Source: a virus (taxonomy: Duplodnaviria; Heunggongvirae; Uroviricota; Caudoviricetes). Taken from it: DNA of 13,904 nt. Location: the IMG/VR virus record IMGVR_UViG_2778261674_000001, positions 1-13,904 of that record, one strand, 5' to 3'. Of this stretch, positions 2,179-4,927 are shown piece by piece (the stretch's first letter is position 1; each line of letters opens with the position of its first letter). Position numbers and translations under genes: made by a program. The notes under the pieces were generated by a model, which was given only the letters and a program-made list of their open reading frames with translations, ran no database searches and was not told where the DNA came from.

Positions 2179-2505
2179 TCAAATAAGTGGTTTGCTGCCT
2201 AATTTCATTTTCTGGCGACCAACACAAGTCACACCTATTTCACTGCGTGGCTTGCTGTACCATGTGCGCTGATTCTTGCGCTCAATACGTTGCAGGTTGC
2301 TTTCAATCTGTTCGTGGTATTCAGCCAGCACCGTAAGGTCTATCGGATTCAGTGCGCTTTCTACTCGTGATTTCGGTTTGCGATTCAGCGAGAGAATAGG
2401 GCGGTTAACTGGCTTTGCGCTTACCCCAACCAACAGGGGATTTGCTGCTTTCCATTGAGCCTGTTTCTCTGCGCGACGTTCGCGGCGGCGTGTTTGTGCA
2501 TCCAT
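2179..2505 (-). CDS. N: N-type transcription antiterminator; lambda N-like with a diverged C-terminal third
   Basis: MDAQTRRRERRAEKQAQWKAANPLLVGVSAKPVNRPILSLNRKPKSRVESALNPIDLTVLAEYH... The arginine-rich N-terminus that binds boxB is lambda N. The C-terminus (...SKPRSEIGVTCVGRQKMKLGSKPLI) differs from the lambda sequence I recall. Shine-Dalgarno GGAGAA lies upstream of the ATG at 2505. Confidence 0.9.
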   Translation of the reverse strand: MDAQTRRRERRAEKQAQWKAANPLLVGVSAKPVNRPILSLNRKPKSRVESALNPIDLTVLAEYHEQIESNLQRIERKNQRTWYSKPRSEIGVTCVGRQKMKLGSKPLI

Positions 2506-2703
2506 CTGGATTCTCCTGTCAGTTAGCTTTGGTGATTGGATGGCCGGCGCTGAACCCCGGCTTACTGGTTAGAGCGCCCGCACTACCAGTGACGCTGTCT
2601 TGAGGCGCAGATTGGTTACTGCTTGCCATGAGCGCTGTTTATACATTGGTCGAGCATCAGCCTGCTCATTCATCCAATCCCAAAGCCTTCTGCTTTGAAT
2701 GCT

Positions 2704-2734
2704 GCCCTTCTTCAGGGCTTAATTTTTAAGAGCC
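2704..2734 (-). promoter_or_regulatory. nutL: boxA (GCTCTTAAA) followed by the boxB hairpin (GCCCTGAAGAAGGGC) on the minus strand
   Basis: The reverse complement of 2704-2734 reads GCTCTTAAAAATTAAGCCCTGAAGAAGGGC, which is the lambda nutL sequence. It lies between pL and N. Confidence 0.9.
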
Positions 2735-2766
2735 TCACCTTCATGGTGGTCAGTGCGTCCTGCTGA

Positions 2767-2817
2767 TGGGTAAACTTTATCGAAATGATAAATTAATGGC
2801 AATAGCAAAATGATAAA
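2767..2817 (-). promoter_or_regulatory. pL-like promoter with overlapping OL operators of non-lambda specificity
   Basis: The minus-strand transcript start region ATCAGCAGGACGCACTGACCACCATGAAGGTGA is as in lambda pL. Inferred -10 TAAAGT (plus 2774-2779) and -35 TTGCCA (plus 2797-2802) with a 17-bp spacer. One 17-bp palindromic operator TTTATCgaaatGATAAA at 2776-2792 and a weaker second site at 2801-2817 (AATAGCaaaatGATAAA). Lambda OL sequence is absent. Confidence 0.6.
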
Positions 2818-2995
2818 TTTCTTTGATTTTAAAATATCATATTGATTTTCATGGTGTTTTATTTTTGTTGCAGGAATTCGACAGGAGAAATGAAGAGGCT
2901 TGAGGGAGATCTGGATTGCGTGGTTTAGCAAGTTGTATTTATCAATTTTTCACTAAATACAATTGGTTATGTGTTTTTAGGTGGGGCGATCGTGA

Positions 2996-3026
2996 GGCAA
3001 AGAAAACCCGGCGCTGAGGCCGGGTT
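2996..3026 (-). terminator. Rho-independent terminator ending the minus-strand immunity-side operon (timm-like position)
   Basis: 8-bp stem AACCCGGC(3005-3012)/GCCGGGTT(3019-3026) with a 6-nt loop. On the minus strand it is followed by UUUUCUUUG (complement of 2996-3004). It sits just downstream of the stops at 3039/3055. Confidence 0.6.
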
Positions 3027-3038
3027 GTGAGGAATTAA

Positions 3039-3224
3039 TTACAGAGCAAAGAGATCATGCATTAGGTTGCTGTTCATCTGGTGGTTGAATTGATACGGCT
3101 CCAATTCCTTCTTGATCTCGTTCAGGTGTTGTTCCGCTTTTTTTGCCAGATCGTGACCTTCTTGGATCTGGCTTTCCAACATCTTGTTGAGAATTTCCAT
3201 CTCCGGTTGCAGATTCTTCGGCAT
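3039..3224 (-). CDS. Small ORF (61 aa from the ATG at 3224; up to 91 aa if started at 3314), predicted helical; nested out of frame in the 3' end of the protease-like gene
   Basis: Track ORF 3039..3314. The internal ATG at 3224-3222 is preceded by a strong Shine-Dalgarno AAGAGGAAA (complement of 3231-3239). The product MPKNLQPEMEILNKMLESQIQEGHDLAKKAEQHLNEIKKELEPYQ... looks like real helical protein. No homologue recognised. Confidence 0.4.
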   Translation of the reverse strand: MPKNLQPEMEILNKMLESQIQEGHDLAKKAEQHLNEIKKELEPYQFNHQMNSNLMHDLFAL

Positions 3225-4056
3225 TAGCTTTTTCCTCTTTTTGTAGATACGTTGTACAATCAATAACCCTCGGCTTTCCAAATGTTGGAATGTCACCATT
3301 ATGAATTTTGTCACAGAAAAGATTATAGAGTATTTCTGTTATACCTTTAGGATGCTCAACACACTTGAAAAGTTCCTTGGCTTCTTTTCTGTCGATAACA
3401 AATCCATGTGAAGGATATGAGGCTATTAGTTTGCCTAACGCCCCTTCTTTTAGGCTGCTTGGTTTGTCTGCTAATCGTTGGCCATAAGTGATAGCTATAC
3501 TCATTGCGCGCTGATGTTCACCAAGCTTTATTGGATCTATCTGTGCGGCCATAGGTGCTATCAACGCTTCTGTAAGTCTGGTCGCGATATCAGCAGACAT
3601 TTTGGTACTTATCTGATTTTCGTATCTTATCTTAACAAGGTGTGAGTTAAACGCTGAAATAGAGCGTTCCTTTAGAGCATCAAGAGCTGTCATGATAGCT
3701 AAACCAGAACTCATCTCACCTATTTCATCGTTTTTTTTCAGTTGGATATCTAATGGCCCAAGCTCCCCCATGTCACCAATAACAAGTTTATTGGCTGCTA
3801 TAGCTATTAGTGTACCAGCACTTTTGCATGGTCCAACAACTAAAAGTGTTACCGTTTCATAATGGTGCTGTAGAGCTCTACCTATACGATAACCTGCATT
3901 TGGATCACCGCCATAAGTAGCAACACAGAAGATAACATTCTCTTTTAATCCATGTTGTGACTTACGTTTCTTGATTTCATTGGTGAGATCAAGATAACCA
4001 TCACGATGAATATCGCCTGTATACACATAAACATCATGATTTTCAATAGAATTCAT
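3055..4056 (-). CDS. ClpP-fold serine-protease-like protein (SDH / peptidase S49-like), 333 aa; occupies the slot where lambda has rexAB
   Basis: ATG at 4056-4054 with Shine-Dalgarno AGGGAG upstream. Motifs TYGGDPNAGYRIGRAL ... VVGPCKSAGTLIAIAANKLVIGDMGELGPLDIQL resemble the SDH/S49/ClpP nucleophile region (G-x-x-x-S-x-G, Ser codon at 3822-3820). A possible catalytic His sits in YPSHGF. The last ~75 residues are low-complexity and overlap the nested ORF. Family assignment is from recalled motifs, not a search. Confidence 0.65.
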   Translation of the reverse strand: MNSIENHDVYVYTGDIHRDGYLDLTNEIKKRKSQHGLKENVIFCVATYGGDPNAGYRIGRALQHHYETVTLLVVGPCKSAGTLIAIAANKLVIGDMGELGPLDIQLKKNDEIGEMSSGLAIMTALDALKERSISAFNSHLVKIRYENQISTKMSADIATRLTEALIAPMAAQIDPIKLGEHQRAMSIAITYGQRLADKPSSLKEGALGKLIASYPSHGFVIDRKEAKELFKCVEHPKGITEILYNLFCDKIHNGDIPTFGKPRVIDCTTYLQKEEKANAEESATGDGNSQQDVGKPDPRRSRSGKKSGTTPERDQEGIGAVSIQPPDEQQPNA

Positions 4057-4222
4057 TCGTTAAACTCCCTGCTGTGGTTACGATGAATGTATTCATGTTG
4101 AAGCTAAGCCATAGCGGCTTGTCATCATCACCAATCTGGCGGAATTGACTGTTCATAAATCACAATTGGAATTACCCAAACGTCTCTTCAGGCCACTGGC
4201 TACCAGCTATGTGACGATGAAG

Positions 4223-4927
4223 TCACGAATTTTTCAGCCACTCCCTTGCCTCGATGTCATCCAGATGGCGAGATTGCTTCAGAATACCAGCCACATACTC
4301 CACCTTTGCTACTTGATGATAAGGCAACGTTATTGGCCTGTGGTCCTGGTTAATGCTTGTAAATTGGTATTCTCCATCTCTGTCATAGCCAAGAACCTTA
4401 ATCATGTTGTGTCCTTCAACGGTTCTGACAAACACCTCATCACCCGGGAATACTTTGGTGTTAGGCTCAATGAGTACATATTCTCCTGATTTTATTCTGG
4501 GCCACATGCTGTCTCCTTTCACACGAAGACCAAAGGCATCTGGATCATCGCTATAAATTTTGAGCCACCCATCGCGCTCTTCGGTCATCTCGATGGCACC
4601 ATCAACACCAAGAATTGCCTCACCAACCACGCGCACTAACCCTTTTCTTACCTGACCTACAAAAGTTAAAGAATCTGAGCATGATGCAATTGGTGTTACA
4701 TCATGTACCAAATCAAGCCACCCATTAGGTAACCCAAGTGCAGCTTCAAATTTTCTTGCTAGTTTATCCCCTATGTTTCGAGTGCTTTTTTCACCGGAGA
4801 CTTGCGTGAGTTGAGAAGGGCTAACCCCAAGCTTATCGGCAAAGCTTGCATTAGTGTTACCCGCGATTTTTTTATGCTCATCTAGCAAAAACGCCAGATT
4901 CGATTTGCGAATATCTTTGTTTTCCAT
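4223..4927 (-). CDS. CI-type prophage repressor: N-terminal HTH plus C-terminal LexA-like S24 autopeptidase domain; non-lambda immunity
   Basis: 234 aa. HTH-like segment NASFADKLGVSPSQLTQVSGEK near the N-terminus, and an S24 signature GDSMWPRI ... with the conserved Lys (MIKVLG) in the C-terminal half. Divergently arranged with the cro-like gene across the operator region. Shine-Dalgarno AGGGAG before the ATG. Confidence 0.85.
   Translation of the reverse strand: MENKDIRKSNLAFLLDEHKKIAGNTNASFADKLGVSPSQLTQVSGEKSTRNIGDKLARKFEAALGLPNGWLDLVHDVTPIASCSDSLTFVGQVRKGLVRVVGEAILGVDGAIEMTEERDGWLKIYSDDPDAFGLRVKGDSMWPRIKSGEYVLIEPNTKVFPGDEVFVRTVEGHNMIKVLGYDRDGEYQFTSINQDHRPITLPYHQVAKVEYVAGILKQSRHLDDIEAREWLKNS

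Follow-up and report, generated by a model that had tools for sequence, protein, structure and literature searches.

The 13,904-nucleotide stretch of DNA analyzed here (referred to as the window; IMG/VR record IMGVR_UViG_2778261674_000001) derives from a mosaic lambdoid E. coli prophage. On its minus strand, to which all features given below belong, a cI-like repressor, a protease open reading frame (ORF), a small ORF, a terminator, and the antiterminator gene N follow one another in this order, and the small ORF begins inside the 3′ end of the protease gene in a different frame. The repressor (4223-4927), which carries a helix-turn-helix and a Peptidase_S24 domain (Pfam PF00717, E = 3.8e-16), lies immediately upstream of the protease gene (3055-4056, 333 aa), whose ClpP-fold product bears the RefSeq label ‘SDH family Clp fold serine proteinase’ (WP_001084325). 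The nested small gene of 61 aa (3039-3224) is in the +1 frame relative to the protease and shares with it 170 nt (3055-3224), which correspond to protease residues 278-333 plus the stop codon and to small-protein codons 1-57. An intrinsic terminator, a hairpin followed by a T-run, occupies 3005-3026, 13 nt past the small-gene stop. In the RefSeq and GenBank records inspected, the small ORF is without annotation. Taken as a whole, the locus is best explained, with good confidence from comparative sequence evidence, as a genuine dual-coding region specifying both the tail of the protease and an independent 61-aa protein.

An earlier note on this DNA had described the 333-aa ORF together with a same-strand ORF of 61-91 codons overlapping it for about 260 nt, and both are indeed present (3055-4056 and 3039-3314). 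The +1-frame ORF ending at 3039 measures 91 aa when counted from a GTG at 3314 and 61 aa when counted from an internal ATG at 3224, and the overlap with the protease gene amounts to 260 nt for the former and 170 nt for the latter. Only the shorter form is conserved, the longer one being interrupted in relatives by +1-frame stops situated 9-22 codons 5′ of the ATG (14 codons before it in the E. coli alleles at 96% and 90.5%). Because of these stops, the 61-codon ATG form is, on the evidence of the alignments, the real small gene, while the GTG-initiated extension (3225-3314) falls outside it and is not conserved. The stretch before the ATG, hereafter the linker, follows the protease-frame substitution pattern.

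The Shine-Dalgarno sequence that had been pointed out ahead of the ATG at 3224 was confirmed as AAGAGGAAA at 3231-3239, with its GAGG (3234-3237) stopping 9 nt before the start codon, and it is conserved in enteric relatives. The predicted product, MPKNLQPEMEILNKMLESQIQEGHDLAKKAEQHLNEIKKELEPYQFNHQMNSNLMHDLFAL, contains the peptides NLQPEMEILNK, MLESQIQEGHDLAK, and ELEPYQFNHQMNSNLMHDLFAL, and has neither the cysteine nor the signal peptide expected of a spanin. In agreement with the helical character suspected beforehand, AlphaFold2 (AF2) models it as a single long helix over residues 3-60 with a predicted local distance difference test (pLDDT) score of 86, and this helix is predicted to be amphipathic and heptad-like. 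Scans of the 61-aa protein against Pfam, PHROGs, NCBIfam, and PADLOC gave nothing significant.

The same arrangement of two frames recurs in 28 complete E. coli genomes (13 at ≥99%, 7 at ~96%, and 8 at ~90.5%), and all three allele classes (100/96/90.5%) retain the ATG, the GAGGA, and the 61-aa product; across these alleles the tail region exceeds the linker in nucleotide-level conservation. The 90.5% allele carries three substitutions within ATC AAG AAG GAA TTG GAG that are silent for IKKELE of the small protein and that turn EGI of the protease into KRT. An enteric set of 27 viral contigs and an Aeromonadaceae genome yielded 17 non-redundant sequences with 59-100% protease identity. At these 17 loci the small peptide spans 59-61 aa in a nearly gapless alignment, with EMExLN, QIQE, LEPYQ, and NQM as its conserved elements, and the small ORF stops in most cases 16 nt beyond the protease stop. 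GAGGA (or GGAG, AGGA) is held at a constant distance from the ATG, unlike the linker just 5′ of the small gene, which is hypervariable; a conserved start and ribosome-binding site of its own, as expected of an out-of-frame nested gene, thus accompany the small ORF at all 17 loci. Alignment of the homologues, which the earlier note had suggested, revealed a conserved small frame and two open frames and no fused versions; no homologues with a single uninterrupted frame were encountered, and the small ORF was conserved throughout the enteric set.

Mean pairwise nucleotide diversity by codon position in the enteric sequences revealed a change of frame at the overlap. Counted in protease codon positions 1/2/3, diversity is 0.11/0.06/0.49 in the catalytic domain and 0.30/0.22/0.55 in the linker, and becomes 0.33/0.18/0.165 in the overlap; counted in small-frame codon positions, it is 0.19/0.16/0.35 over the 17 enteric loci. 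In the overlap, the wobble signal therefore shifts to the third position of the small frame. A comparison of silent sites, likewise proposed beforehand, pointed the same way. In a comparison of eight close sequences aligned without gaps, 31 of the variants proved synonymous in the small frame alone, a class to which random change would contribute 20%, as against 16 synonymous only in the protease frame (about 19 expected; 29% at random); another 18 are non-synonymous in both frames, where 51% would be expected. By these comparative measures, the small frame bears the signature of purifying selection throughout the overlap.

The protease frame is maintained as well, in a different manner. When the codons of the small protein are resampled synonymously, 3.2-6.8 stops appear in the protease frame and the probability that this frame stays open is 0-0.023, yet the 17 diverged sequences contain 0 stops. 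With none found against 3-7 expected, the protease tail is kept, with little constraint on its amino acids: over ~55 residues the frame is held stop-free, and the disordered, hydrophilic tail encoded there is almost free to vary in sequence. Such a disordered tail, as it appears in the structural model, can be regarded as the type of region able to tolerate a second frame. Both frames of the overlap are under selection, as dual coding demands. The nested same-strand pair with an architecture like that of Rz/Rz1, one of the readings offered in the earlier note, is supported by the conserved Shine-Dalgarno sequence and ATG together with the frame-switched codon signature, and a nested, dual-coding arrangement with a predicted independent translation of the small gene can be assigned with high confidence.

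The depth of this arrangement was explored in a distant set of 80 loci, taken from one-genome-per-species contigs and showing 34-57% identity. Small helical ORFs in the +1 frame lie beside the protease tail in relatives from Beta-, Gamma-, and Alphaproteobacteria, Chlorobi, and Bacteroidetes. All-against-all phmmer comparison returned 65 significant pairs for the +1-frame segments versus 24 for the protease tails encoded by the same DNA, and the clusters of +1 peptides include those of Betaproteobacteria (with an HQMPxxVQxALRQAS motif), of enterics and Bartonella, of Bacteroidetes, and of Chlorobi/Nitrosomonas/Electrothrix. Overlap diversity, given by small-frame codon positions 1/2/3, is highest at the third position in Betaproteobacteria (0.48/0.44/0.61), in Proteus/Rahnella (0.42/0.39/0.60), in the Nitrosomonas group (0.49/0.44/0.62), and in the pair L023/L024 (0.22/0.20/0.39). 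The Bacteroidetes overlap has no third-position peak (0.58/0.47/0.50); in this clade (L039, L044, L049, L068, L070, L073) the small ORF begins in the tail and runs 150-250 nt past the protease stop. This less-overlapped layout may represent an ancestral or alternative state of the gene order. The conserved part of the Bacteroidetes small ORF (for example DLTRKxxExQSxGxxEIY) lies downstream of the protease stop. The distance between the two stops in the distant loci ranges from -29 to +256 nt and is uninformative as a test. A hidden Markov model (HMM) of the enteric small protein, run against six-frame ORFs of the 80 distant loci, recovered its own training member only, and two ORFs at the expected position matched with E of 5-10. 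Pfam, PHROGs, NCBIfam, and PADLOC scans of ten distant-clade small proteins gave nothing significant either.

The protease into which the small gene is nested belongs to a family of which 1574 homologues were found. Its AF2 model is folded over residues 1-283, with pLDDT >90 across most of residues 10-100, whereas residues 284-332 fall below 50 and are predicted to be disordered; the overlapping tail is low-complexity, as the earlier note had remarked, and hydrophilic. The best Foldseek matches in the PDB are the stomatin-specific protease 1510-N/NfeD, SppA, and ClpP (probability 1.0, E about 1e-4), and structural matches in BFVD are giant-virus ‘serine dehydrogenase proteinases’. The model thus displays the ClpP/crotonase fold, and the nucleophile serine, S79 in a CKSAGT motif, is invariant in 61 sequences. 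A sequence search against solved structures retrieved only marginal ClpP/NfeD hits (E 0.2-1). Since its scores fall below the cut-offs for both PF01972 (29.6 bits vs 31.3) and NF047768 (36.7 bits vs 250), the protein stands outside the core of the SDH family, as a diverged relative; these sub-threshold matches span the nucleophile region, and precomputed Pfam hits on the homologues include PF01972. Homologues at 45-96% identity are almost all 320-340 aa long with the same kind of tail, and over-length ones are N-terminal over-calls.

Two rival readings, both raised in the earlier note, connect the two frames into one product. In the first, a programmed +1 (or -2) ribosomal frameshift in the linker would generate a protease-helix fusion. 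The +1 frame of prfB is reached with the help of a Shine-Dalgarno-like GAGGA; such a GAGGA lies just 5′ of the ATG here, in a window whose own +1 frame is open for 38 codons 5′ of the ATG. Such a shift is nevertheless highly improbable, as the +1 frame of the relatives is closed 9-22 codons before the ATG, the stretch is hypervariable and has no shared slippery motif, and the ATG and its spacing from the Shine-Dalgarno sequence are conserved, which a mechanism based on shifting only would not need. Inspection of the 9-22 codons where both frames are open revealed no conserved slippery site. No fusion-length protein containing the peptide was found among 5.8 or 1.84 billion proteins, a negative that concerns predicted proteins and is to be read with the fact that gene callers would not predict trans-frame products. 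The word-indexed search of 5.8 billion proteins returned only 61-aa ORFs and one 55-aa chimera, the small ORF having been predicted by gene finders only 8 times, and the full HMM search of 1.84 billion representatives returned four proteins, each of them the nested ORF. In the second reading, a frameshift mutation or assembly error would have split a once longer single-frame gene. In its favor, the overlap contains an A7 homopolymer (3138-3144), at which a metagenome ORF (P0128, 55 aa) changes frame, fusing the N-terminus of the small protein to the C-terminus of the protease. Against this stand the identical layout in the 28 E. coli genomes, the 27 viral contigs, and dozens of diverged loci in genomes of other genera, the shared length (about 320-340 aa) and tail type of the homologues, and the existence of alleles that have no A7 run, so that a mutation or error is refuted by the comparative data and its probability is practically negligible. 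Rather than being programmed, the frame switch in P0128 probably stems from an indel in the homopolymer. Read in the small frame, the run (A_AAA_AAA) presents a classic -1 slippery pattern into the protease frame; it is specific to the window allele, the 96% and 90.5% alleles having GGCAAGAAAAGC at this site (run interrupted, AAGAAAA), and was rejected as a programmed -1 site because it is missing from other alleles.

The remaining rivals each deny coding function to one of the two frames. The small ORF might be a non-coding by-product whose conservation stems from an RNA element or from constraint on the tail, a notion favored by the higher nucleotide conservation of the tail relative to the linker and by the fact that the +1 frame stays open in 43-100% of synonymous recodings of the tail. 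This openness is uninformative, because T is nearly absent from the second codon position of the hydrophilic tail; what goes beyond chance, as far as the sequences can tell, is the conserved start of the small ORF, its Shine-Dalgarno sequence, its protein sequence, and its codon-position pattern. The by-product reading is very unlikely in view of the three-base periodicity of substitutions, which is in phase with the small frame and not with the protease frame, the overrepresentation of changes that leave only the small protein unaltered, the conserved ATG and Shine-Dalgarno sequence, the heptad-like amphipathic helix, and the +1-frame peptides conserved across clades whose tails are not. Moreover, a scan of 2400-4300 gave no Rfam match, and an RNA element would not yield three-base periodicity. 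Conversely, only the small gene might be selected in the overlap, the protease tail being functionless read-through of incidental length. The weak amino-acid constraint on the tail, its predicted disorder, the absence of any surplus of changes synonymous in the protease frame alone, and the few short-tailed homologues would all suit such a view. It is still unlikely, given the 3-7 protease-frame stops expected and not seen in 17 diverged sequences and the clustering of homologues at 45-96% identity around 320-340 aa.

The surroundings of the pair place it in a variable part of the prophage immunity region. The stretch 2950-3037, which contains the terminator, has matches in >900 E. coli genomes. 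The protease accompanies it in only 28 of them, its neighbor in the rest being rexB, an NYN-domain gene, or no annotated gene, and the module therefore occupies the rexAB position. To judge from these alignments, the same stretch is a recombination boundary, and the cargo carried between cI and N can be swapped; this region has been described as a mosaic hotspot with the abortive-infection systems rexAB and BstA (Owen et al., PMC8585504). The repressor is immediately upstream on the same strand and the module ends before the terminator. The repressor stop and the protease start are separated by a 166-nt gap (4057-4222), in which a simple sigma-70 scan detected no minus-strand promoter; rexB has its own promoter, pLit. 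Further downstream lie the N gene (2179-2505; PF11438, E = 1.5e-26), a 66-aa ORF at 1900-2100 that we take to be lambda Ral, and a gene for a DUF2528 protein (1349-1717). To the left of N the window is unlike its closest full-length relatives, a sign of mosaicism.

The order of repressor and then protease recurs in Klebsiella Rac-like prophages, in Bartonella, in 11 of 77 distant loci, and in a Klebsiella phage immunity region. In the Klebsiella Rac-like prophages (L113-L116), a 59%-identical protease sits directly behind a CI-type repressor and opposite ydaS/ydaT, presumably the position held by sieB in E. coli Rac. In Klebsiella phage ST13-OXA48phi12.4 (L112), a 71-aa hypothetical gene (3495-3710, minus strand) overlaps the protease start by 14 nt and is divergent from an XRE regulator/ImmA metalloprotease pair, an immunity-type context; the nested small gene is likewise unannotated in this phage. 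Reading of translations by eye further suggested what are presumably an ImmA/IrrE-like HExxH protein and an integrase near the module in the Cellvibrio group (L019, with L021), a type I restriction R subunit in L018, a PIN-domain protein in L029, and a Fic-motif protein with a transposase in L070, surroundings that look, by eye, mobile-element- or defense-island-like.

Based on these observations, a working model can be proposed. The repressor, the protease, and the small gene would be co-transcribed in the lysogen on an RNA ending at the terminator at 3005-3026, and with a transcript shared with the repressor, both products should be made in the lysogen. Some ribosomes would start at the ATG at 3224, guided by the conserved Shine-Dalgarno sequence, and yield the helix, whereas others would finish the protease tail on the same RNA. 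The small amphipathic helix would most likely serve as a regulator, adaptor, or inhibitor that binds the ClpP-fold protease, and nesting would prevent the two genes from being separated by the mosaic exchange typical of the slot. As the slot between cI and N houses rexAB and BstA and relatives of the module adjoin repressors, integrases, restriction genes, and toxin genes, the most likely role would be that of a protease system that is expressed in the lysogen and directed against superinfecting phages or otherwise engaged in prophage-host conflict. A defense function, suggested by this context, is conceivable but on the doubtful side. More speculative still is the wider proposal that the pair constitutes an unrecognized two-component system of prophage immunity regions and mobile elements in several phyla, whose partner has been nested since before these lineages diverged and in which the helix gates a lysogen-expressed protease switch for anti-phage action or prophage control.

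Several points weigh against the interpretation given here, as to the dual-coding region or to its proposed function. The significance values of the variant classes (chi-square p = 8e-8, binomial p = 6e-4) are approximate and indicative, the within-clade sequences being phylogenetically related and their non-independence ignored, and the openness of the +1 frame is, as explained above, by itself to be expected of a hydrophilic tail. Some members of the family are short-tailed, with 282-284 aa in total, and the tail and the nested gene are therefore not universal. The small proteins of different clades could not be shown to be homologous to one another. On the functional side, the proposed role is deduced from genomic context only, PADLOC-DB v2 contains zero families matching either protein at E ≤ 1, and no relevant paper on the protease family was found, searches on PF01972 and on ClpP-like genes in a rexAB context included.

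In bacteria and their phages, it is rare for a long out-of-frame overlap between same-strand genes to be demonstrably maintained in both frames, and the present case stands out by its clear dual-frame maintenance, its wide distribution, and its complete absence from annotation. With it, a widespread, uncharacterized family of ClpP-fold proteases recurring in a repressor-linked slot gains a hidden partner. Anyone assaying the protease alone would unknowingly be assaying two genes, and any tag or truncation introduced at the C-terminus of the protease would destroy the partner gene. Because a single-base change can be silent in one frame and abolish the product of the other, the system lends itself to direct testing: as computed on the sequence, minus-strand T3223C converts the ATG of the small frame to ACG while leaving the protease unchanged (N278N), and minus-strand G3219T is silent at a proline of the small frame while creating E280stop in the protease.

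Among known systems, the closest in architecture are the spanin genes Rz/Rz1 of lambda, which are nested out of frame. Here too, a small +1-frame gene with its own Shine-Dalgarno sequence and start lies in the 3′ part of a larger same-strand gene of a lambdoid phage, both presumably on one transcript. The proteins, however, are unrelated: the small one lacks both a lipoprotein signal and a lipobox, and its large counterpart is, according to its AF2 model, a soluble protease and no membrane spanin. Furthermore, the small ORF extends 16 nt past the stop of the large gene instead of being fully embedded, and the locus is in the immunity region rather than in a lysis cassette. A second parallel is provided by C/Nu3 of lambda, where an S49/ClpP-fold prohead protease gene contains a nested in-frame scaffold gene. 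Both cases combine a ClpP-superfamily protease gene with an internally initiated helical 3′ product (predicted in ours), and the protease has weak PHROG/NCBIfam matches to head-maturation proteases (34 bits vs a cut-off of 120). The nested gene described here is out of frame, unlike that of C/Nu3, and the locus lies outside the head-gene cluster.

With rexAB of lambda and BstA of BTP1, the module shares the slot directly behind the repressor and before the terminator and N, but no relationship in sequence or fold. SppA, 1510-N (NfeD), and ClpP have the same fold, with the conserved nucleophile serine in CKSAGT in our protein; we know of no nested partner gene in these families. The protease differs from them by a sequence identity of 12-16%, by being soluble without a membrane anchor, and by an extra helical domain (118-283) followed by the disordered tail. 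In B. subtilis SppA, according to the title of PDB entry 4kwb, the self-processed C-terminus is bound in the active site. This is possibly analogous to the tail of the protease studied here. Finally, srfAB of Bacillus subtilis harbors, in another frame, comS, a gene for a small regulatory peptide that interacts with a Clp protease system. It resembles the present small gene in being overprinted on a large gene, whereas sequences and context are unrelated, comS lying in the middle of a nonribosomal peptide synthetase gene and being narrowly distributed.

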